Shown here: positions 1,089 to 64,000 of the stretch, piece after piece
Layout of the letters: every line of letters starts with the position of its first letter
How positions within the stretch are numbered: position 1 is the stretch's first letter
Made by a program: the position numbers and the translations under genes
The notes under the pieces: generated by a model
What the model was told of the DNA's origin: nothing
The model's database searches: none
The model's input: the letters and a program-made list of their open reading frames with translations, nothing else
Origin: Patescibacteria group bacterium
Lineage (GTDB): Bacteria > Patescibacteriota > Minisyncoccia > UBA6257 > UBA9933
DNA length: 64,000 bases
Assembly: GCA_038078555.1 (NCBI GenBank)
Contig: JBBTYQ010000003.1
Coordinates: forward strand, 397-64,396
Direction: 5' to 3'

Positions 1089-1142
1089 TTGCTTTTATTA
1101 TAGACCAAAACGATACTTAAGCAAAATAACTTATCCCCAACT

Positions 1143-23280: not shown

Positions 23281-23733
23281 TTAAATTCCCAACTCCGACA
23301 GTTTCTCCGCTATTTCATCGGACGCGCTTTCTGTTTTAGCTTTATATTCTTTCCATGCCAGACTGTCCCAAATTTCAATTCTGTTATACAAACCGGCTAT
23401 CACTGCTTCTTTTTTTAATCCGGCATATTCTCTTAAATAATCCGGTATTAAAATTCTGCCTTGCTTGTCTATTTCAACATCCATTGCACCGGCAAGCATA
23501 AGCCTTGCAAAAGCTCGCGAATTGGCTTGAACCAAAGGTAAAGCAATAAGCTTTTGAGCTAAAATTTCCCAATCTTTAGCGCCAAAAGCAAATAAACAAT
23601 GGTCTAAACCTCTGGTAATAATTGCTCCGCCTGAAAGGTTTGGCCTAAATTTTGCCGGCAAAGCAATTCTGCCTTTAGAGTCTAAATTATGTTGGTATTC
23701 GCCTAATAGCATGCGAATTTTTTCTACAAGCAA
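23281..23733 (-). CDS. mraZ: Transcriptional regulator MraZ
   Basis: It has two SpoVT/AbrB-like halves with DSKGRIALP and DKQGRILIP. A MraZ-like N-terminus (MLLGEYQH) suggests the start at 23712 rather than 23733. Confidence 0.93.
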   Translation of the reverse strand: MLVEKIRMLLGEYQHNLDSKGRIALPAKFRPNLSGGAIITRGLDHCLFAFGAKDWEILAQKLIALPLVQANSRAFARLMLAGAMDVEIDKQGRILIPDYLREYAGLKKEAVIAGLYNRIEIWDSLAWKEYKAKTESASDEIAEKLSELGI

Positions 23734-23756
23734 GGCGAGTAGCTGAAAAATTCAGC

Positions 23757-24010
23757 ACCCCGCCCTCTATGCATTAATTCTTTTTTTGAGCGCTCGCCAA
23801 GCGCTACCATAATATTTAAGTTTTTTCTCTCTGCTTCTCGCATCTTGTTCGTATAAATAAGCTTCATAATAAATATATTTATCTTCTGGGAAATTTAGTT
23901 TATGTTCTTTTATCCGCCTTTCTAAATCATTTGTATAGCCAATATATAATTCGTCATTCTTTCGATTTTTGATTACGTAAACAAAATACATAACGCTTAG
24001 AGGGCGGGGT
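23757..24010. repeat. 13-bp perfect inverted repeat bracketing the GIY-YIG ORF
   Basis: ACCCCGCCCTCTA at 23757-23769 overlaps the stop codon. Its reverse complement TAGAGGGCGGGGT is at 23998-24010, 6 nt upstream of the start codon. Confidence 0.85.
23767..23991 (-). CDS. GIY-YIG nuclease family protein
   Basis: 74 aa with MYFVYVIKNRKNDELYIGYTNDLERRIKEH. Confidence 0.85.
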   Translation of the reverse strand: MYFVYVIKNRKNDELYIGYTNDLERRIKEHKLNFPEDKYIYYEAYLYEQDARSREKKLKYYGSAWRALKKRINA

Positions 24011-24081
24011 AACTCGATTTTGTAAATTCGCTCTGCTCATACAAAATCGGTTATCCCCCATTTATTGACTTTTCCCCATAC

Positions 24082-24127
24082 TTATCCACAATTCCCCACT
24101 TCTATTTAATTTTGCTCCACTTATAAT
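24082..24127 (+). promoter_or_regulatory. TTATCCACA-N31-TATAAT promoter-like module (plus strand, no downstream gene)
   Basis: TTATCCACA is at 24082-24090 and TATAAT at 24122-24127. It has the same architecture as the sites upstream of the genes starting at 29684 and 63687. Confidence 0.45.
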
Positions 24128-24163
24128 AATGAGTCAAGCGATTAAAAAATTTTAAGAGCAACT

Positions 24164-24192
24164 AAAAAGCCCGCTATTTAAGCGGGCTTTTT
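24164..24192. terminator. Bidirectional terminator (giant gene / candidate short plus-strand transcript)
   Basis: An 8-bp stem (AGCCCGCT / AGCGGGCT) with loop ATTTA is flanked by an A-run and a T-run. Confidence 0.75.
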
Positions 24193-24227
24193 AAAATTAA
24201 TTCAAAATTTATTCACAGCTTATCCCC

Positions 24228-27200
24228 TTATCTTACTTTCTTCAAAAACTGGAATGTTTCCTCGAAGTTTTTAACAATAACATCAACGATTGATTCTGAT
24301 TGGCGCGGCGTAATAATTGTTCTAATCGGAGAAATCGTCTTATTTCCGGCATCGTCAACTGAAGCAACTCTCATTCTATAAAGGCTGCCTGGTTTTAATT
24401 TTGTGATAATTACATTATGCGTCTCGCTGAAATTATCGCTAATCTCTACTCTATTATTAAGCGGGTCGTCAGCCGAACCGGAACCTTCGGCATATTCTAC
24501 GAGCGAGGTTGACGGCTCATCGCTCTTCCAACTCACGATTGTCTGAACTCTGTCATTTCTGCCAGGAATCATGGCGCTGTCAATCTTAAGATTGGAAATC
24601 ACCGGAGCAGCCACGTCTCTGCTGGTTTTTGCAGTAAGCGTTTCTTGAGACTCAATCAGACTGCCTGCTTCGCTATAACCGGAAACTTTAATCTCGTAAG
24701 AAGTGTCTGGCGTAAGATTTTCAATTTTAATGTTGTGGTCAACGATTTTTTCTTCCCTGATTTTCTGTCCGATTTCTCCGGTTCTTAAATTCTTGTACTC
24801 CACAATGGAACTGGCTGGCTGTTCCGTAAACCAAACTACCACAATAGCGTCGTTATCAATATCAGAAACGCGAGAATTTATTTTTCCGGCTTTAGTGGAA
24901 AAAGTTAGGTCAGCGCTCTTGCCTACTGCCTGAGGCAGGCTAAAAGACTTTGTCATATAGTGATATTTGGCGTTTGGCGCTAAACCGCTTAATGTAATTT
25001 CATGACTGGCGCTTTTAATTTCAATATTAGAAACTTCCGAAATATAAGGATTTGTTTTAGAAATATCGTAATCTTTTTCCAAAGCATAAGCCACAACCGA
25101 ATAAGCCGGAATATTAGTTTTCCATTTTACAATCGCGGAGTTTTCGGTAATATCAACAACTCTCGGTTCTTCAATAAAAGGTGGAAGAATTGAAGGCAAA
25201 ATTGACTCAATTGATTTTTCTATCGCTTCCTGGAATTGCGAAGCTCTTTCGAGAGTCACTAAGTCTCTTACAGATTCGGCAAAAAACTTGGTGCTGAAAG
25301 TTTGATCAGGAGAAGAGCCGGAATTTCCCGCTTTATCAATTGCTTTTACTTTAAAATGATAATCCGTGCCCATTCTAAGATTGGAAAGTTTAATACTATG
25401 AGTCGTGCGAAAATCCGAAGAAGCGGAGTTTAAGCCGTATTCAGCATTTTCTCCGTAATCAACAAAAACTGTGGAATCCTCATTAGTGGTTAAGTTTACA
25501 ATTGCGCTGAATGCGCCAATGCTTGAAACTTCAATATTGCCTATCGTCGGTCCTGACGTATCATTTGCTCCAGCGCCTCCTCCGCCGCTTACCACATAAA
25601 CCGTTATTGTTTCTTTTTCCGAAGCGGAAGTGAAATTTTGCTCGTCAGAAACAGCTGTGGCGCTGTCGGGATTCATATCGTAAGATTTAACCCGGAAATA
25701 ATATTGAGTAACCGCGCTTAGGCCGCTAATCGTGACAATATGGCCGGTGGTCAAAGTATTATCGCGCGTGGTGGTAGTGGCATAATTTCCGGTTGAAGCT
25801 GAACTTGGGCCGTATTCCACTTGAGAAGTTGACGGCTCGTCAGTTGACCAAGTAATGACTGCGTGCGTGTTTGTAATAAGCGGAGTTATGATATTGGAAA
25901 TTACCGGCGGTTTGGTATCAAGAGTTGTCCGGCACTGATAAAAATTTCCGCTGTTGTTCTCTATGGCGGCGTTATTATTTGAATCATTGGATTGAACCCG
26001 CAAGTAATAATTTGTTCCCTGAGACAAACCGGTTAAATTAACACTGTGCTGATATAATCCGCCGGCCAAAGCGCCGGAACCAACCATGCCGCTTGAGACA
26101 GAACTGGTGGCGTTTGTTAAAGTGGAATTCACCGAATAATCAACTCTGGAGTTAGAATCAACATTGGTATTCCATGAAACCGTAAAAGAGGTGCCAACAA
26201 TATTAGTACAGGAAACACTTGTAATCGCCGGACCGCCAACAGTCGTAAAGCTATAACCGACGCCGCTATTATCGTCTGTTCGGGTGTTGTTTAAAATGTC
26301 TGTTGATTTTACGCGGAAATAATAAGTGGCGCTGGGAGTAAGCCCGGTAATATAGACCGTATGAGGCGTAGAAGACGCGAGTAGTGTTTCAACATAAACA
26401 GAGGAAGTATATGAGCCTTGAGTGGCGGAATATTCAACCCGCGAATCGGCGTATTCGTCGGTCTCCCAAGTGATTTTTGCCCAAGTTGACTGCACTTCAG
26501 TGCTTGAAGCGTTGGAAATTATCGGCGCGGTATTATCCGTGCCTCCTTGGCCGTCAACATAGTCATTAGCTACTGCGGAAAATTCCGACTTATCGCCGTC
26601 AGTGTCAACAAATTTAACTTTATAATAATAAGTAGTTGAAGAAGAAACGCTGGAATCAGTGTAATAATTAGTTGAAGAACTTGTAATAGTAGAAATCTGG
26701 CTGTAATTCGAATTGTCGGTGGAGCGAAAAACTTGATAAGAAGCATATGTAGCGCCGGAAGTGGCGGTATAAGGCACCCAGGAAATAAATTCCCGCCATT
26801 GGCTGGTATCAGCATTAGAAACATCCTTAATGTTTAAGCCGGTTGAATTTTGACTGCCGATGGCCGGCGCAACAACCGAACCGGAAGAAGTGTTTCCATA
26901 AACATCTCTAACCTCATAATAAACTGATTCTGAATTAGGCGCGGCGCTGATTGCCCAAGTTGTTGAGGAATTTATAGAAGTAGCACCAACGCTTTGCCAC
27001 TGGCCGCTTGTGCCGTTTGAGCCGTCAGCTGATAGATTGCTGTTATTGGAAAATCTGTAAGAGATATTAGAATCATCGGAAAAATTAAAGCTTAAAATAT
27101 TACCGGTTGAACCGCCGGCGCTGGAATCAAAAGTTACGGTCGCGGTCGGAACTTTTGTATCAAGAGTAAAAACCGCGCTGGTGGAAGAAGTAATGGAATT

Positions 27201-29684
27201 AGCGGCTTCGTTATCATTAGCGGTTACTCTGATTTGAGTAGTGGTGGAAAAAATACTTGTGCCTAGTTGAGAAGCGGCATCCCAGATAGCTGAAGTGGAA
27301 GTGGAAGTGACTGTGGTGGAAGTTGAAGAATATGTAAGCTCCTGAACCGGCTTATTGCTTAAAGCTCCGCTGTTTAAATAGCCGCTGGTTATCGAAGTCC
27401 AAGCCGCGCCGCTATTTAATCGATATTCCAAGGACGGTGTAATATAGCCCGGATTAGTAGTGCCGGTTAAAGAATCAGTATCTCTAGCACTATAAATCAA
27501 TAAAGTTTTGCCCCAATTGGAATCGGCGCTGTCTGATATTTGAGACACAGAAACGCCATTTGTACCATAAGCGCTGTCAAAGCTCGGTGGCGCGTTTACC
27601 ACATAAGTAACAACTACATTATCAACAGTAGCCGAAGATCCTCCTCCGGAATCTAAAGTAACTTTATATTGAAACCATCTGTCATTTGCCCCGTTCATTA
27701 AAGCGTGCGTACTGCTCGAAACGCTAAAAGAAATTCCATTATCATTAGAATCAAAATAATCGCTGTTATCGCAAGCCGTTGGTCCGCACCAATTAGACCA
27801 AGCGGAACCGTCAGGCGAAGACCGAACCTGAAATTTAACTGTTTCCGTAGTGGAGGTGCCGGTTTCTATCCAGCTTATTTTTGAAACTAAGGTTGTGTTG
27901 TCTCCCGCGTCATAAGCCGAAGAAATTAAACTTCCCGGAGGACTGGAAGTCTGCGGATAAACAATGGTAACGTCGTTTAATATCGGAGTGGAACTGGAAA
28001 CTGTTGATGAAAGATAAGCTTTATAACGAAAATAACGGTTATTATACAAAGAAGAAGGTATGTCCGTGCCGGAAGTCGTGAAATATGTTCCCGAAGTCCC
28101 GTCAGTACCAACATAGCTCCAGCCAGAACCGGTATTATTCGCCGCTACTTGAAATTGCAGAGTTGTTCCCGCGGTTGTTGTGGCATTCCAGGAAAAAGCG
28201 CCGAAAGTTGCCCTATTAACTAAATCAATTGTCGCTGATTCAAAAGTGCCGGAGGTATTATACGGATTCATACTTACCATTAAATCATTAGTTCCGGCAG
28301 AATTTGCATAATAACTTACAAACACATTATTAGCATCAATTCCGTGAATATCATTGTAAGATGCACCTGTATTAAGAAAAGAGGTTGACCAGCTTGTGCC
28401 GCCATTAGTTGAAGTAGCAAATTTAACGTCATAATTACTTGATTCCAAATAACTCACAAACAATGTATTAACATCAGCGGCAAATAACGATTTCTCTCCT
28501 CTTGAAGCTGGCACGGTATCTATATTAGAAATCGTCCAGCTTGTGCCGTTATATTTAGCCAACTGAACATCACTACTAAGACTTCCGTCGTCATAAGCTA
28601 TTAAAATATTATTGGCATCAATAACCTCAAGCGATGTCTTATTTGGAGCGGCGCCCATAGAAGCGTCAATGGTTGAAGTTGCCCAGCTTGTGCCGCCATT
28701 AGTTGATGAAGCAAACATTAGGGCAACACCACTTTCCACATAACTCACAAATAATGTATTAGCGTTAATCGCTTCAATTGAAGGGAAAAGACCGCCTCCA
28801 ACTGTTGCTCGAGCGTCAATAATTGAAGTTGTCCAATCCGTGCCGCCGTTGGTTGATTTGGCAAATTTTACATCAACATTAGTTGTGTCTTGATAAGCAA
28901 TAAATATAGTGCTTGAATCAACCGCTGAAATTGAAGTCAATGTTCCAACAATTGTGGCTGATGAATCAACAGTTGCAAGCGTCCAGCTGGCTCCGCCGTT
29001 GGTTGATTTGGCAAATTTCAAATCATCGCTAGTATCATCATAATAACTTATAAATATTGTATTAGCGTCAACCGCGTAAATTGATGTCCATAAACCGGTA
29101 ACACCCGTAGAATCAACAGTTGAAGTTGCCCAAGTTGCTCCGCCATCTGTTGATTTGGCAAAAAGAAGATCCGAAGAACCTCCCTGATAACTTATAAATA
29201 TAGTATTAGAATTTACAGCATAAACTGAATTATACGGACCAACATTTCCATTTGTATCCACGGCTTTAGTGGTTAAGTCATTGATGGAATTAAAAGAAGT
29301 TTTGGTGGAAACTATACTTGACGCAGTGGTACTTGTTCCGGTTACCACAACCGTAGAAGTTGAACCGCTTAAAAATCCTCCGCCAGTTGCTACGCCACTG
29401 GTGCTTGTCGCTCCATCATCTGTAAAAGAAAATGAAGTGGTGGCTAATTGCAAGTTGGTTGAAATTGACATTCCCGCGGTTGAAGAAGAATACTCGGTCC
29501 AGCCGGTTTGATTGCTCGCGTGGCTGGCGGTATTGGCCGTTACTCCCCCGCTCCAATTGCTTTGGCTGAAAGTATAGGTTGCGGCATAGGCTTCTTTAGG
29601 CTGATAATAAAAAGTGCCGGCAATAATTGCGGCAATCAAAAACAACGCGGTCAGCTCATGAAAAAGTTTTTTATATCTTGACAT
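24228..29684 (-). CDS. Giant surface protein: signal anchor, BNR/Asp-box propeller-like region, then many FN3/PAP-N-like repeats
   Basis: 1818 aa with an N-terminal hydrophobic anchor. It has at least five Asp-box motifs (STDGGATW, STNGGASW, STNGGTDW, STNGGTSW x2). It also has at least eight repeats of the type W.T.E..DSRVEYS....YYFRVKS.D. Confidence 0.85.
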   Translation of the reverse strand: MSRYKKLFHELTALFLIAAIIAGTFYYQPKEAYAATYTFSQSNWSGGVTANTASHASNQTGWTEYSSSTAGMSISTNLQLATTSFSFTDDGATSTSGVATGGGFLSGSTSTVVVTGTSTTASSIVSTKTSFNSINDLTTKAVDTNGNVGPYNSVYAVNSNTIFISYQGGSSDLLFAKSTDGGATWATSTVDSTGVTGLWTSIYAVDANTIFISYYDDTSDDLKFAKSTNGGASWTLATVDSSATIVGTLTSISAVDSSTIFIAYQDTTNVDVKFAKSTNGGTDWTTSIIDARATVGGGLFPSIEAINANTLFVSYVESGVALMFASSTNGGTSWATSTIDASMGAAPNKTSLEVIDANNILIAYDDGSLSSDVQLAKYNGTSWTISNIDTVPASRGEKSLFAADVNTLFVSYLESSNYDVKFATSTNGGTSWSTSFLNTGASYNDIHGIDANNVFVSYYANSAGTNDLMVSMNPYNTSGTFESATIDLVNRATFGAFSWNATTTAGTTLQFQVAANNTGSGWSYVGTDGTSGTYFTTSGTDIPSSLYNNRYFRYKAYLSSTVSSSTPILNDVTIVYPQTSSPPGSLISSAYDAGDNTTLVSKISWIETGTSTTETVKFQVRSSPDGSAWSNWCGPTACDNSDYFDSNDNGISFSVSSSTHALMNGANDRWFQYKVTLDSGGGSSATVDNVVVTYVVNAPPSFDSAYGTNGVSVSQISDSADSNWGKTLLIYSARDTDSLTGTTNPGYITPSLEYRLNSGAAWTSITSGYLNSGALSNKPVQELTYSSTSTTVTSTSTSAIWDAASQLGTSIFSTTTQIRVTANDNEAANSITSSTSAVFTLDTKVPTATVTFDSSAGGSTGNILSFNFSDDSNISYRFSNNSNLSADGSNGTSGQWQSVGATSINSSTTWAISAAPNSESVYYEVRDVYGNTSSGSVVAPAIGSQNSTGLNIKDVSNADTSQWREFISWVPYTATSGATYASYQVFRSTDNSNYSQISTITSSSTNYYTDSSVSSSTTYYYKVKFVDTDGDKSEFSAVANDYVDGQGGTDNTAPIISNASSTEVQSTWAKITWETDEYADSRVEYSATQGSYTSSVYVETLLASSTPHTVYITGLTPSATYYFRVKSTDILNNTRTDDNSGVGYSFTTVGGPAITSVSCTNIVGTSFTVSWNTNVDSNSRVDYSVNSTLTNATSSVSSGMVGSGALAGGLYQHSVNLTGLSQGTNYYLRVQSNDSNNNAAIENNSGNFYQCRTTLDTKPPVISNIITPLITNTHAVITWSTDEPSTSQVEYGPSSASTGNYATTTTRDNTLTTGHIVTISGLSAVTQYYFRVKSYDMNPDSATAVSDEQNFTSASEKETITVYVVSGGGGAGANDTSGPTIGNIEVSSIGAFSAIVNLTTNEDSTVFVDYGENAEYGLNSASSDFRTTHSIKLSNLRMGTDYHFKVKAIDKAGNSGSSPDQTFSTKFFAESVRDLVTLERASQFQEAIEKSIESILPSILPPFIEEPRVVDITENSAIVKWKTNIPAYSVVAYALEKDYDISKTNPYISEVSNIEIKSASHEITLSGLAPNAKYHYMTKSFSLPQAVGKSADLTFSTKAGKINSRVSDIDNDAIVVVWFTEQPASSIVEYKNLRTGEIGQKIREEKIVDHNIKIENLTPDTSYEIKVSGYSEAGSLIESQETLTAKTSRDVAAPVISNLKIDSAMIPGRNDRVQTIVSWKSDEPSTSLVEYAEGSGSADDPLNNRVEISDNFSETHNVIITKLKPGSLYRMRVASVDDAGNKTISPIRTIITPRQSESIVDVIVKNFEETFQFLKKVR

Positions 29685-29695
29685 CTTTAGCTTAA

Positions 29696-29741
29696 ATTAT
29701 ACCAAGAAATCTCTTAAATTGCCTATTTATATTGTGGATAA
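29696..29741 (-). promoter_or_regulatory. TTATCCACA-N31-TGGTATAAT promoter of the giant surface-protein gene
   Basis: On the minus strand, TTATCCACA is at 29741-29733 and the extended -10 TGGTATAAT at 29704-29696. The ATG follows 11 nt later. Confidence 0.55.
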
Positions 29742-29823
29742 CTATTGCGGCTATTCTTATCATTGTCTTATTATTATACTATAATAAAATGATTAAGTTA
29801 TTTGAATTACTTAAAAATTCAAA

Positions 29824-29847
29824 TAGCATTATTTGCGATTACTCTAA
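29824..29847 (+). promoter_or_regulatory. Conserved pre-ATG element, copy E1 (TAGCATTATTTGCGATTACTCTAA)
   Basis: It directly abuts the ATG of the response-regulator gene. Related copies abut the starts at 30777, 35683, 40492 and 44729. Confidence 0.5.
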
Positions 29848-30282
29848 ATGTTTGACCCTTCCAATAAAATTAAAATCCTTCTGGTTGACGACGACGAGAT
29901 GATAAGAATTTATTTCCGGGATATTTTCTGGATTCACGGCTTGGATAATAAATACGATCTAACCACCGTGGAATCTCCCCAAAAAGCCGAAGCAATAATT
30001 TCAGACCCAAAAACAAGGCCTCATATAATCTTCACCGACCTGGTGATGCCTGCGGAAAAAGACGGCCGAATAATCACCTCGCCAGAGGCGGGTTTAAATT
30101 TTCTTAAAAAGATCAAAACCGACCCGGAGCTTAAAGATGTCAAGGTTATCGTTTTTTCCGGCCACAGCGAAGACACGCTTAAAAAACAAGTAAAAGAATT
30201 AGGCGCGGAAAATTATATGATTAAAAGCGATAATCTGCCTAAAGATTTAATTGAATATGTGGAAAAAATGATTGGAAAGTAA
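29848..30282 (+). CDS. Stand-alone response-regulator receiver domain (CheY-like)
   Basis: 144 aa with the acidic pocket LLVDDDE, a phospho-acceptor-type D in IIFTDLVMP, and no output domain. Confidence 0.85.
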   Translation: MFDPSNKIKILLVDDDEMIRIYFRDIFWIHGLDNKYDLTTVESPQKAEAIISDPKTRPHIIFTDLVMPAEKDGRIITSPEAGLNFLKKIKTDPELKDVKVIVFSGHSEDTLKKQVKELGAENYMIKSDNLPKDLIEYVEKMIGK

Positions 30283-30316
30283 TCGCAAATAATGCGAATT
30301 TAAAAAAATAAAAATA

Positions 30317-30727
30317 ATGCGAATCAATAAAACAAGTACAAGATCAGCGGAAAAAATAATTTTCCCGGAATTAAGTTATAAAATTGTTGGCGCATCATTT
30401 AATATATTCAATGAATTAGGTTGGGGATTGCCGGAAAAAGATTATCAAAAAGCTCTTAAGGAAGAACTAGATGAGTTGGGATTGTCATACAAACAAGAAG
30501 CTTATATTCCATTGCAATACAAAGCGATAAATATTGGCCGATATTTTGCCGATTTTATTGTTGATGATAAAATTTTAATCGAAATAAAAGTAGTATCAAA
30601 ATTAGGTTATGCCCATGTTAAACAAATACTAACTTATCTTAAAGCGGCTAATCTAAAATTGGGAATTTTAATTTATTTTACTAAAGAAGGTATAAAATAT
30701 CGTCGCATTTTAAATTCTCAATTTTAA
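30317..30727 (+). CDS. GxxExxY protein (PD-(D/E)XK nuclease-like superfamily)
   Basis: 136 aa. It carries the signature G-LP-E-KD-Y (GLPEKDY) and the core DFIVDDKILIEIK. The start codon lies inside an AATAATGCGAAT repeat. Confidence 0.8.
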   Translation: MRINKTSTRSAEKIIFPELSYKIVGASFNIFNELGWGLPEKDYQKALKEELDELGLSYKQEAYIPLQYKAINIGRYFADFIVDDKILIEIKVVSKLGYAHVKQILTYLKAANLKLGILIYFTKEGIKYRRILNSQF

Positions 30728-30754: not shown

Positions 30755-30776
30755 TAGCATTATTCGCGATCACTCT
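30755..30776 (+). promoter_or_regulatory. Conserved pre-ATG element, copy E2 (TAGCATTATTCGCGATCACTCT)
   Basis: It directly abuts the ATG of the ABC ATPase gene. Confidence 0.5.
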
Positions 30777-35683: not shown

Positions 35684-35705
35684 ATAATGTTCGCGAATAA
35701 TGCTA
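35684..35705 (-). promoter_or_regulatory. Conserved pre-ATG element, copy E3 (TAGCATTATTCGCGAACATTAT)
   Basis: It directly abuts the rplJ ATG on the minus strand. Confidence 0.5.
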
Positions 35706-40492: not shown

Positions 40493-40515
40493 AATAGTGT
40501 TCGCGAATAATGCTA
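40493..40515 (-). promoter_or_regulatory. Conserved pre-ATG element, copy E4 (TAGCATTATTCGCGAACACTATT)
   Basis: It directly abuts the ATG of the 417-aa gene on the minus strand. Confidence 0.5.
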
Positions 40516-40580
40516 ATCAACAGCAAATAATGCCGATGTATCTAACTCGCATTATTTAAAAAATTTTGCATTATTAGTAA

Positions 40581-41333
40581 TTACTCTTTTATTAACGGCA
40601 CAAAACTGAAACCAAAATACTCTTTTTGAGAATATTCATTTTTAGCCAGCTTGTCAATTACAACAATCGAATTATCAACCGGCGCGACTATTCGGCCGCC
40701 GATTTTTAATTGTTTTCGCCATTCGCCAGGCACATCGCCAGAACTAGCGGCTCCACAAATAATTTTATCATAAAACTCCGCAGGTTTATAGCCCTTAGAA
40801 CCATCTGCCAAAATAACGCTAGTGATGCCTTTTTCAATAAAATTATACTTTGAAACATTCTTCTCGGCCATTTCTTTAAGCTCGGGAATGCGCTCTATAG
40901 CTATTACTTTTGGCGCCGGTTTTTCAGAATTAACAGAATTTTCTGCTTCTGAAATATCGTTTTTTTCAAGGATATTTTTATCGCTATCCTTATCTGCCAA
41001 ATAAGATAAAATCGCCGTCTGCCAGCCGCTGCCTGCGCCAATTTCCAATATATGCTCTCCGGATTTAGGTCCTAAAAGCTCAATCATAAAAGCAACCGTT
41101 AAGGGTTGGGAAATGGTTTGGCCAAAACCGATGGGTAAAGGCGCATTAATATAAGCTTCGTTTTTATATTCTTCGGATACGAAATTAATTCTATCAACTG
41201 CCCTAAATGCTTCAATTATTTCCAGTGTTTTTAAATAACCATCCTGGATTAAAGAATCAATTAGATTTTCGTATTCCTGATTGACTATACTATTCATTAA
41301 TACTATAATAATATAAATTGACTTAATTGCCAA
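40581..41333 (-). CDS. pcm: Protein-L-isoaspartate O-methyltransferase with about 40-aa acidic insertion
   Basis: It has GFGQTISQPLTVAFMIELL and the SAM motif ILEIGAGSGWQTA. The likely start is ATG 41297 (MNSIVNQEY...) rather than 41333. Confidence 0.88.
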   Translation of the reverse strand: MAIKSIYIIIVLMNSIVNQEYENLIDSLIQDGYLKTLEIIEAFRAVDRINFVSEEYKNEAYINAPLPIGFGQTISQPLTVAFMIELLGPKSGEHILEIGAGSGWQTAILSYLADKDSDKNILEKNDISEAENSVNSEKPAPKVIAIERIPELKEMAEKNVSKYNFIEKGITSVILADGSKGYKPAEFYDKIICGAASSGDVPGEWRKQLKIGGRIVAPVDNSIVVIDKLAKNEYSQKEYFGFSFVPLIKE

Positions 41334-44729: not shown

Positions 44730-44753
44730 GGAGTATTCACTAATAATGCGAAT
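44730..44753 (-). promoter_or_regulatory. Conserved pre-ATG element, divergent copy E5 (ATTCGCATTATTAGTGAATACTCC)
   Basis: It directly abuts the ATG at 44729. It shares the CGCATTATT core and the A-T-ACT tail with E1-E4. Confidence 0.35.
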
Positions 44754-63033: not shown

Positions 63034-63687
63034 TTATCTTGACGGAACTTCAATCCTGTCGCCTGGCGCAACCGGAGGAGGCGGCGGTGGTAACGGTAAG
63101 CTTGATATTGTTTTTACAACATTAGAAAAATTCAGCCAACCAACAACGTCAGCTCCCCAAGCCCAACCGCCGTAAGAAGTGCCGGCGCCAAGAGAATCAT
63201 CTATTTTATTACTAATAAGCTTAGCATCAGTAATTTTAATCCAGCCGTTCCAATCGCCCCGCTCCAAGTTATTTTTTAATGCGCCGCTGCAACCAGACGC
63301 AAAAACATTACACGCCCTTAGCCAGCCGGAAATATCGCCGGTAGCAACATCAATAACAACCGGAGTGTTTGGGTTTTCCGGATAAGGACCAACCGGATTA
63401 AAATTAATCCAGCCAATATTGGAAGACCAAGCATAACCTCTTAACTCTTCTTTGCCTCCTGATGCAGGAACAATACTTACTTTATAATCCGAACTAGCGC
63501 AAACTCCCCTGTCTTCACAGTTAACGCTTACCCAGCCGATATTAGAAGACCACATCCAACCACTCAAAACATTGCCACTAACTTGAGCTTCAGCAGAATA
63601 AAAATTTTCAAATCCGTAAAAATAAGTAGCTCCGGCTAAAAGCAAAAATATTGTCACGAAGATAATAAATTTAGGTAATTGTTTCAT
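63034..63687 (-). CDS. Secreted GW-repeat protein with poly-Pro C-terminal tail
   Basis: 217 aa with a signal peptide. It has four repeats of type G(W/Y)xWSSNIGW(V/I)xxN. The C-terminus is PLPPPPPPVAPGDRIEVPSR. Confidence 0.75.
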   Translation of the reverse strand: MKQLPKFIIFVTIFLLLAGATYFYGFENFYSAEAQVSGNVLSGWMWSSNIGWVSVNCEDRGVCASSDYKVSIVPASGGKEELRGYAWSSNIGWINFNPVGPYPENPNTPVVIDVATGDISGWLRACNVFASGCSGALKNNLERGDWNGWIKITDAKLISNKIDDSLGAGTSYGGWAWGADVVGWLNFSNVVKTISSLPLPPPPPPVAPGDRIEVPSR

Positions 63688-63695
63688 TAGTTTTA

Positions 63696-63740
63696 ATTAT
63701 AGCATTAATAGAAAAAGAATGGCGTTGTTTCTGTGGATAA
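63696..63740 (-). promoter_or_regulatory. TTATCCACA-N30-TGCTATAAT promoter of the GW-repeat protein gene
   Basis: On the minus strand, TTATCCACA is at 63740-63732 and the extended -10 TGCTATAAT at 63704-63696. The ATG follows 8 nt later. Confidence 0.55.
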
Positions 63741-63745
63741 CCGAG

Positions 63746-64000
63746 TTATCTCGGAATAATTTCTATCAAACCGCCTGGCGGGCCAACTGGTGGCGGCGGT
63801 GGTGGCGGCAGTATAATAATATAGTTTCCGGAAAAAGTGATTATTCCGCCACCGGATAAAGTCTGAGAAATTGAAACTGGAGTATTATAGCCAGCCACAC
63901 TATTCCATGTGATGGTATAAACGCCGAGTGGCATACTGGGATAAGAAGCAGAAACGCCTGAACCGGTTCTAGTGGAAGGTCCGGTGATTGTCCAGGAGGC
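63746..64000 (-). CDS. Secreted protein, 5' end outside window, same poly-Pro C-terminal tail
   Basis: The frame is open to the window edge and continues upstream of the ORF-track Met at 63934. The C-terminus is ILPPPPPPPVGPPGGLIEIIPR, homologous at DNA level to the end of the 63034-63687 gene. Confidence 0.7.
   Translation of the reverse strand, partial: ASWTITGPSTRTGSGVSASYPSMPLGVYTITWNSVAGYNTPVSISQTLSGGGIITFSGNYIIILPPPPPPPVGPPGGLIEIIPR

Follow-up and report, generated by a model that had tools for sequence, protein, structure and literature searches.

The 9-mer TTATCCACA, set at a fixed distance upstream of an extended -10 box, forms a promoter module that is under selection, is widespread in the Patescibacteria (CPR), and is specific in both orientation and distance. 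The element itself is an asymmetric, orientation-specific 9-mer that must be perfect and is centred near -48. We describe it from a stretch of 64,000 nucleotides of a Patescibacteria group bacterium (the 64-kb window), in which it precedes two genes. Patescibacteria make up a large share of bacterial diversity, have tiny genomes with few recognisable regulators, and attach to their hosts by pili and surface proteins. To our knowledge, almost nothing has been described about the control of their pilus and surface genes. An invariant cis-element marking dozens of envelope and pilus promoters in each genome, over many CPR lineages, gives a testable handle on CPR regulation, and it offers a way of predicting surface-exposed proteins from DNA sequence.

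The window belongs to a 76-kb contig recovered from Hainich groundwater (0.1-um fraction; ENA ERZ1292624). Its GC content is 33-44% in 2-kb segments, the genes are small, and start codons 8-11 nt past a -10 are common. By sequence comparison, its nearest relatives are Patescibacteria (CPR) metagenome contigs. Exact copies of TTATCCACA occur three times, at 24082-24090 (plus strand), 29733-29741 (minus) and 63732-63740 (minus), and each agrees in full with the DnaA-box consensus (relaxed form: TT[A/T]TNCACA). Dinucleotide-preserving shuffles hold 0.25 exact copies on average, and none of 100 shuffles reaches three. TATAAT follows the three boxes after 31, 31 and 30 nt, respectively, an arrangement for which the shuffle expectation is 0.00. 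The perfect 9-mer 30/31 nt before TATAAT, which a first-pass annotation of this DNA had pointed out, is thus real and far above chance (3 vs 0.25 for the boxes; 3/3 vs 0 for the spacing). That annotation had also read the box sequences correctly at 24082, 29733, 63732 and 1139. Of the two imperfect boxes it listed, TTATCCCCC is indeed at 24051, but TTATCCCCT lies at 24220-24228 and not at 24217; positions 24209-24217 read TTATTCACA. Copies with one mismatch are at chance level (14 in the window vs 13.9 expected), so that, taken by themselves, imperfect copies are statistically uninformative. No more copies of the exact 9-mer occur in another 10 kb of the contig past the window start.

Two of the three copies lie in promoters of the type described here. 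The features are as follows.

29733-29741, minus strand: solitary TTATCCACA box in the promoter of the 1818-amino-acid gene, at about -52 to -44 if TATAAT is taken as -12 to -7 of a predicted start site
29696-29704, minus strand: extended -10 TGGTATAAT of the 1818-amino-acid gene, the top-scoring promoter-like site in 23600-30000
24228-29684, minus strand: target gene of 1818 amino acids, with an N-terminal hydrophobic, signal-like segment MSRYKKLFHELTALFLIAAIIAGTFYYQPKEAYA
63732-63740, minus strand: second solitary TTATCCACA box, at about -51 to -43, beginning 5 nt past the stop codon of the upstream gene
63696-63704, minus strand: extended -10 TGCTATAAT of the 217-amino-acid gene, from sequence reading
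63034-63687, minus strand: target gene of 217 amino acids, with an N-terminal transmembrane segment and repeated GW..SSNIGW motifs

Read on the minus strand, the first promoter (29741 to 29733 and onward) has the form TTATCCACA-N28-TGGTATAAT-N11-ATG ahead of the open reading frame (ORF) at 24228-29684, and the second (63740 to 63732 and onward) the form TTATCCACA-N27-TGCTATAAT-N8-ATG ahead of ORF 63034-63687. Both thus have an extended -10 with a start codon within about 12 nt. Because its ATG is only 11 nt past the -10, the mRNA of the 1818-amino-acid gene is probably leaderless or nearly so; transcription start sites and leaderless status are deduced here from -10-to-ATG distances. The -35 of this promoter is weak (best candidate TAGGCA, with an 18-nt spacer). 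A divergent plus-strand promoter, TTATCA-17-TATAAT, lies at 29757-29785, and the box at 29733-29741 is at about -55 from it. Beyond its N-terminal 400 amino acids the 1818-amino-acid protein carries FN3 / Pur_ac_phosph_N repeats, and homologues of the N-terminal 400 amino acids have BNR/sialidase-type domains. The gene has no close orthologue (best match 43-55% identity over part of the query only), and the box is absent from three distinct distant homologues (five loci), so that the element is tied to a class of genes rather than to one protein family. A Pfam search of the 217-amino-acid protein gave no match; on the same strand its gene is followed by a 125-amino-acid ORF and then by a Gly_rich_2 gene. 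A hairpin, CCGAG-ATAA-CTCGG (63747-63760, minus strand), holds the stop codon of the upstream gene and abuts the second box; as it has no T-run, it is probably not a terminator.

How general is this arrangement? We scanned 185,579 species genomes (596 Gb) for the pattern TTATCCACA-N27/28-TGNTATAAT-N7-12-ATG, which has 20 specified bases. Chance would give about 13 matches at uniform base composition and several-fold more in AT-rich DNA. This promoter-type pattern is matched at 112 loci. At least 76 of them are labelled CPR, from many candidate phyla (Jorgensen-, Moran-, Nomura-, Uhr-, Magasanik-, Buchanan-, Yanofsky-, Azam-, Vogel-, Doudna- and Paceibacterota, “Saccharibacteria,” and others); nine more are in genomes assembled from metagenomes and labelled “bacterium,” and about 25 are in other taxa, which is near the chance level. 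For CPR we expect about three matches by our own estimate, based on about 120 TGnTATAAT sites per Mb in the fetched loci and on a rough figure for the size of the CPR fraction; the excess over chance is roughly 30-fold. The required TG and nearby ATG favour leaderless CPR genes, and the taxonomic skew is therefore partly built in: the scan shows a module widespread in CPR, not one exclusive to CPR.

The spacers between box and -10 are unrelated among the matches. With unrelated spacers in at least 76 CPR-labelled genomes and a single orientation, the box and its spacing are a genuine, selected promoter element. We aligned 114 matches in all, 42 with N30 and 72 with N31, and derived a profile from the latter. 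Outside the imposed positions, its information is limited to a G 5' of the box (41/72), a G or A 3' of it, and a weak TTG at -35 to -33, the favoured flanks in the 72 matches being gTTATCCACAg. The same profile contains no second half-site or neighbouring box, and the site is therefore asymmetric and of a monomer type. The 8-kb flanks of the matches hold 37 additional exact 9-mers against nine expected, and the distance from these to a -10-like hexamer again peaks at 30/31. Several sets of orthologous genes, among them the MKKxKLPQIKKDIKAFLTSEEG family (loci L131, L156, L202, L209), keep the box, the -10 and their spacing but have diverged in spacer sequence. This retention is suggestive at most, since the search could find retained copies only.

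Departures from the perfect, correctly oriented box are a different matter. In the fetched loci, boxes with one mismatch occur seven times at N30/31, where about six are expected from neighbouring spacings, and boxes in inverted orientation (TGTGGATAA, then -10) have no distance peak. As mismatched and inverted boxes are both unenriched, we regard the element as a perfect, orientation-specific 9-mer. This bears on a further site in the window:

1131-1139, plus strand: TTATCCCCA, inverted relative to the promoter of a cohesin gene and unsupported as a member of the promoter type

The cohesin ORF (435-1088) is preceded by TGGGGATAA-N28-TATAAT-N8-ATG. The first-pass annotation had counted it as a member of the set, for which neither the mismatch nor the inversion finds support at that spacing. 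Its remark that an ATG follows the -10 by 8-11 nt in all cases is correct for the copies at 29733, 63732 and 1139, but not for the one at 24082, where the ATG is 1 nt after TATAAT.

Two groups of matches have additional conserved sequence. In seven Magasanikbacteria-type loci (L154, L179, L184, L216, L223, L225, L235), GTGGGGAGTGGAATAA precedes the box in an orthologous promoter, and the two together make an imperfect inverted repeat (GTGGAATAA ... TTATCCAC); MraZ-type GTGG boxes thus directly adjoin the promoter box, and the downstream gene encodes a membrane protein of about 167 amino acids. Matches in Streptococcus and Lactococcus (L126, L176, L218, L228) share the element ...gttgttaataagTTATCCACAactata.gttgtg...TGATATAAT, present in at least two copies in Streptococcus ictaluri. 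It is perhaps the promoter of a mobile element or prophage, with a relationship to the Streptococcus suis prophage site described below.

Are certain kinds of genes favoured downstream of the module? Forty-four matches have a complete ORF starting within 120 nt, and we compared the first 70 residues of these with those of 326 other ORFs of at least 200 amino acids in the same loci. A strongly hydrophobic N-terminal segment is found in 33 of the 44 targets (75%) and in 113 of the 326 background ORFs (about 35%), an odds ratio of 5.7 (Fisher test, p = 7e-7). Among 63 downstream proteins, most have no Pfam family. The most frequent family is the N_methyl type IV pilins (6/63), followed by TSP3 repeats (three), collagen repeats (three), sensor kinases (two) and a PilB-type ATPase; RecA, LexA, RtcB, GAPDH, GrpE and a sigma factor occur once each as cytoplasmic targets. 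The annotation's description of the targets as surface-protein genes therefore holds as a tendency, and a genome-wide pattern search of the kind that it had proposed, run here on species genomes, yields both an excess over chance and a bias toward genes for membrane and secreted proteins. The regulon is neither small, contrary to that annotation, nor confined to this genome: it is spread over CPR, and a related geometry occurs in phages of other phyla.

We found the latter by scanning viral contigs for TTATCCACA-N0-30-TTGAC-N18-TATAAT, collapsing related sequences; the matches were listed independently of offset. Among the matches listed, at least 23 box families lie 8-10 nt and at least 23 lie 17-20 nt upstream of TTGACA, compared with about 1.8 families per offset elsewhere. 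These offsets put the phage boxes at about -49 and about -59, positions that differ by one turn of the helix, and their orientation and aaG flank are those of the CPR module. An example is in the early-control region of an S. suis prophage (KX077895.1, at about 37.4 kb). A factor common to CPR and Firmicutes is needed to account for this, and DnaA is one. In one abundant phage family (e.g., L334-L434 within L325-L441, sample 3300045988), TTATCCACA is 16 nt upstream of TTGACA, a second box, TGTGGATAA, lies in the -35/-10 spacer, and GTGGATAAA comes just after the -10, together a dense cluster of DnaA-box type. Tandem TTATCCACA clusters occur on other viral contigs (L008, L027, L102, L115).

The third exact copy in the window, at 24082, had been presented as a promoter of the same type. 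It is instead box 2 of the operator of the mraZ/dcw genes, on the minus strand. The features of this region are:

23281-23712, minus strand: mraZ, from protein homology (ORF 23281-23733; the start is probably the ATG at 23712)
24050-24137, minus strand: mraZ/dcw promoter-operator, which shares the 9-mer; an array common to 55 distinct CPR mraZ loci
24132-24137, minus strand: operator -35, TTGACT
24115-24120, minus strand: operator box 0, GTGGAG
about 24108-24113, minus strand: predicted operator -10, AAAATT
24094-24099, minus strand: operator box 1, GTGGGG
24082-24090, minus strand: operator box 2, TGTGGATAA, the third copy of the first-pass annotation
24070-24078, minus strand: operator box 3, TGGGGAAAA
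24050-24060, minus strand: operator box 4, TGGGGGATAAC, containing the imperfect TTATCCCCC mentioned above
24209-24228, minus strand: far-upstream double box AGGGGATAA-gc-TGTGAATAA, which contains the TTATCCCCT and TTATTCACA sites

Downstream of mraZ are rsmH, an ftsL-like gene, and genes for a PBP and a Mur ligase. We compared 80 CPR mraZ loci with 73-84% protein identity, 55 distinct ones of which have a common control region with the layout TTGACa/t, N17 with GTGGnG, -10, taaaNNaa, GTGGGGaat, TGTGGATAA, nnn, TG(G/T)GGATAA, about 10 nt, TG(G/T)G(G/C)ATAAC, and mraZ. The spacing of boxes 2 and 3 is exactly 3 bp across the 55 loci. In the window, the predicted mraZ -10 precedes the 24082 copy by about 20-30 nt, a layout that all 55 share. 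The far-upstream pair (nGTGnATAA-N2-TGTGnATAA) is found in at least 19 CPR mraZ loci, at a distance of 130 or 140 nt upstream of box 1; at its fifth position A, C, G and T all occur freely. These two distances are one helical turn apart, and the pair usually stands just before the terminator-like hairpin of the preceding gene.

On the plus strand, the TATAAT that follows the 24082 copy after 31 nt is part of the AT-rich stretch that separates the -35 and -10 of mraZ, and the ATG after it opens an ORF of eight codons that runs into a terminator. A plus-strand promoter at 24082-24127 giving a short transcript was considered and rejected: its TATAAT is inside the mraZ promoter spacer and is not conserved in relatives. 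Opposite-strand -10-like signals in the relatives have offsets of 17 and 49, with one case each at 30 and 31. As the TATAAT is not conserved among the 55 related loci, the apparent third promoter is, on this comparison, a coincidence.

The leader of mraZ varies in other ways. A 74-amino-acid GIY-YIG ORF (23767-23991, minus strand) is inserted between the dcw operator and mraZ, flanked by the inverted repeat TAGAGGGCGGGGT (23998-24010 and 23757-23769), and the insert is also present in L237, L248 and L285. Other relatives have different structured inserts of 100-400 nt at the same spot; the mraZ 5' leader thus seems to be a hot spot for insertions. In a sister CPR subclade (L278, L286-L288, L296, L298, L300), the operator has three plain boxes (TGGTGT / TGGGGG / GTGGGG) with a period of 10 nt and no ATAA tails, and short tandem repeats, e.g., (CATAC)n or (TATACC)n, stand between it and mraZ.

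Which protein recognizes the promoter boxes? Judging from the DNA, the most likely reading, which we put at even chances, is that the 9-mer is a solitary high-affinity DnaA box, with DnaA as binder and regulator of the promoter. The module consists of (aa)G-TTATCCACA-(g/a), 30/31 nt of arbitrary sequence, TGnTATAAT, 8-11 nt, and ATG. The 9-mer, at about -52 to -43 just upstream of the -35, in fixed orientation and with no second half-site, would place DnaA on one face of the helix beside RNA polymerase, in direct contact with it. This contact would modulate, and most probably stimulate, initiation at extended -10, largely leaderless promoters, and the output of envelope and pilus proteins would be coupled to the state of the replication initiator. 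A face-of-helix contact is implied by the two phage positions being one turn apart, and activation seems more likely than repression because the box is clear of the core promoter elements. Dependence on an activator gains no support from the -35 elements, since those of the box promoters are not weaker: they match the consensus at 3.12 of 6 positions on average, vs 2.91 at other TGnTATAAT sites (p = 0.32).

The solitary boxes favour DnaA by their 9/9 match, their flanks and their monomer type. The gTTATCCACAg flanks are also those of boxes R1 and R4 of E. coli oriC. In the fetched CPR loci TTATCCCCA never occurs at N30/31, though it is common in the operator. Against DnaA, no replication or nucleotide-synthesis genes typical of DnaA regulons are seen among the Pfam-scanned targets. 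In E. coli, ChIP-seq detects DnaA at double boxes 2 or 3 bp apart with the relaxed consensus TTATnCACA; of 32 solitary consensus boxes, DnaA occupies only 13 in vivo, and it normally needs a pair (PMC11317965). This rule, too, counts against DnaA, because the promoter boxes lack a neighbour in the profile; such pairs (3 bp and 2 bp apart) are found in the dcw region only. There the paired boxes, with their ATAA tail, 11- and 12-nt periods, GTGA/GTGC cores and TGTGnATAA form, seem to fit DnaA better than MraZ. Since boxes 0-2 fit MraZ and the paired boxes fit DnaA better, we read the dcw control region as a composite of MraZ-type and DnaA-type boxes. The interleaving of 9-mer pairs (2-3 bp apart) with MraZ-type GTGG boxes suggests that the same protein may also act on the cell-division operon through 24050-24228.

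The presence of the 9-mer in the mraZ operator raises the possibility that MraZ itself is the binder. The MraZ box of this clade would then have grown to TGTGGATAA, and MraZ would repress its own dcw genes through the array and act on the envelope genes through single perfect boxes. At its own promoter, MraZ binds a row of three to four direct GTG(G/T) boxes repeated every 10 nt (PMC12957436; bioRxiv 10.1101/2022.02.09.479790), and at least three direct boxes with a period of about 10 nt are present in the 24050-24120 array. Box 2 is TGTGGATAA in nearly all 55 loci, at the usual place of MraZ repeats between the promoter/transcription start and mraZ, and the GTGG cores at -21, 0 and +10 fit the 10-nt period. 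The 9-mer contains the GTGG core, its sole multi-copy context here is the mraZ operator, and a division regulator acting on surface proteins would be biologically sensible. Cryo-EM further indicates that the octamer can engage a single box (PMC12957436 / bioRxiv 10.1101/2022.02.09.479790). However, MraZ contacts GTG(G/T) only and takes three to four repeats for good binding, whereas the promoter boxes are solitary and conserved at all nine positions; no additional GTGG/TGGG boxes flank 29733-29741 or 63732-63740, which are also not at the usual location of MraZ repeats. Although the operator contains TGGGGATAA as often as TGTGGATAA, TGGGGATAA is never found at N30/31 before a -10 in the CPR loci, compared with 13 non-seed copies of the exact 9-mer (ten in CPR loci and three in the window). 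The paired boxes do not suit MraZ in their periods of 11 and 12 nt, and their GTGA/GTGC cores break the GTG(G/T) rule. In the sister subclade the operator is a plain TGGGG/GTGGGG x3 array that lacks the tails, and the same box geometry is present in a Streptococcus prophage. We consider MraZ a serious rival to DnaA but a clearly less likely binder of the promoter boxes.

About as likely as MraZ, in our judgement, is another sequence-specific factor, e.g., a CPR transcription factor, a competence or pilus regulator, or a part of RNA polymerase such as the alpha-CTD, for which the identity with the DnaA box would be coincidental or would reflect competition. Class I-type activators and UP-like elements typically show such strictness in distance and orientation, and the pilins, PilB-like ATPase, RecA and LexA among the targets resemble competence regulons; the poor binding of solitary boxes by DnaA in E. 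coli (PMC11317965) points the same way. Such a factor would nevertheless have to recognize the exact universal DnaA consensus, flanks included. A dimeric HTH factor would find no palindromic partner here, and the geometry in phages of non-CPR hosts calls for a factor that crosses phyla. It is very improbable that the boxes are only a reservoir titrating DnaA (datA-like), as scattered perfect boxes can, or chance occurrences in AT-rich intergenic DNA, with no role in transcription: titration needs neither the fixed 30/31-nt distance nor the orientation nor the bias in gene class, and chance is excluded by the shuffles and the roughly 30-fold CPR excess.

With DnaA as the candidate, one may ask whether the window contains a replication origin. 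The hallmarks of oriC are a cluster of DnaA boxes, an AT-rich unwinding element and a GC-skew switch, usually beside dnaA/dnaN. Cumulative GC skew runs near-monotonically from 0 to -2.98 along the window, with a sole small local rise at 24-34 kb and no sustained reversal. No dnaA or dnaN is seen among the window ORFs that were listed or scanned with Pfam, no dnaA in 20 kb of extra contig sequence, and a search for the domain IV signature detects no DnaA gene in all the fetched loci. Rfam and tRNA scans of the window find seven tRNAs only, with nothing near the box sites. Given the near-monotonic skew, the lack of dnaA/dnaN among the scanned ORFs and the solitary promoter boxes at 29733 and 63732, the window is not an origin, in agreement with the earlier annotation.

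DnaA is well established as a transcription factor, at dnaAp, nrdAB, mioC and purH in E. coli and in regulons of B. subtilis and Caulobacter, where it controls ftsZ, gcrA and podJ in the latter. Known DnaA regulons typically include replication or nucleotide-synthesis genes. The module resembles them in that its 9-mer is the TTATCCACA consensus with G flanks upstream of a sigma-70-type promoter; the dcw region has pairs 2-3 bp apart as in E. coli, and the link to cell division recalls Caulobacter. In contrast to these regulons, the boxes here are solitary, invariant and at one fixed distance (N30/31), binding by DnaA is a prediction, the targets are envelope, pilus and secreted proteins, and the module recurs over a whole radiation of phyla. 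The closest parallel for the operator is the MraZ-binding repeat, which is TGGGN x3 in E. coli, GTGG[A/T]G x3 in B. subtilis and GTG[G/T] x4 in Mycoplasma (PMC12957436; bioRxiv 10.1101/2022.02.09.479790). The 24082 copy is likewise in a direct GTGG/TGGG array from the dcw promoter to mraZ, with 10-nt phasing of boxes 0-2, but boxes 2-4 have a conserved ATAA tail and 12-nt spacing and are DnaA-box-like. MraZ repeats also differ from the boxes at 29733 and 63732, each of which stands alone, is reversed with respect to transcription, and precedes the promoter rather than lying at or after the transcription start. In its position just upstream of the -35, and in the phage positions of about -49 and -59, the element is like a class I activator site or UP element. 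It is nonetheless an asymmetric 9-mer that contains GC and is conserved at 9/9 positions, unlike A/T-rich UP elements and unlike the palindromes of CRP-type sites.

While DnaA as a transcription factor and MraZ operators are already known, the fixed-position solitary box in many CPR lineages appears to be new. A literature search found no paper joining TTATCCACA or DnaA with CPR promoters. We know of no description of a solitary, invariant DnaA-type box at a fixed position before CPR envelope and pilus genes, interleaved with MraZ boxes at dcw. It is tempting to speculate, although we would call it somewhat less than an even prospect, that Patescibacteria have recruited DnaA as a global regulator of the surface and pilus proteome through a solitary box at about -48, acting also on mraZ/dcw, and that the phage positions at -49/-59 reflect a general contact geometry between DnaA and RNA polymerase. 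If DnaA is the binder, replication status would be linked to surface remodelling and division in minimal cells. The module would also provide a defined geometry for transcription activation by DnaA, the mechanism of which is called poorly understood in the E. coli literature (PMC11317965).

Finally, the window contains a second shared motif, GCATTATTYGCGAWYAYT, with seven matches at up to three mismatches (1.7 expected), five of them exact. The sites, located by motif search, are:

29826-29843, 30757-30774 and 40568-40585, plus strand: GCATTATTYGCGAWYAYT
35686-35703, 40496-40513, 44732-44749 and 30278-30295, minus strand: GCATTATTYGCGAWYAYT

The motif ends 2-5 nt before the ATG of five unrelated genes, encoding a response-regulator receiver, an ABC ATPase, ribosomal protein L10, and ORFs of 417 and 116 amino acids. 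The response-regulator gene is bracketed by inverted copies, one inverted copy following the gene, and a PDDEXK_3 gene (30317-30727) lies between two copies. GCATTATTYGCGAWYAYT might serve as an alternative signal for transcription (a promoter) or for translation, or it might mark where a mobile cassette ends.
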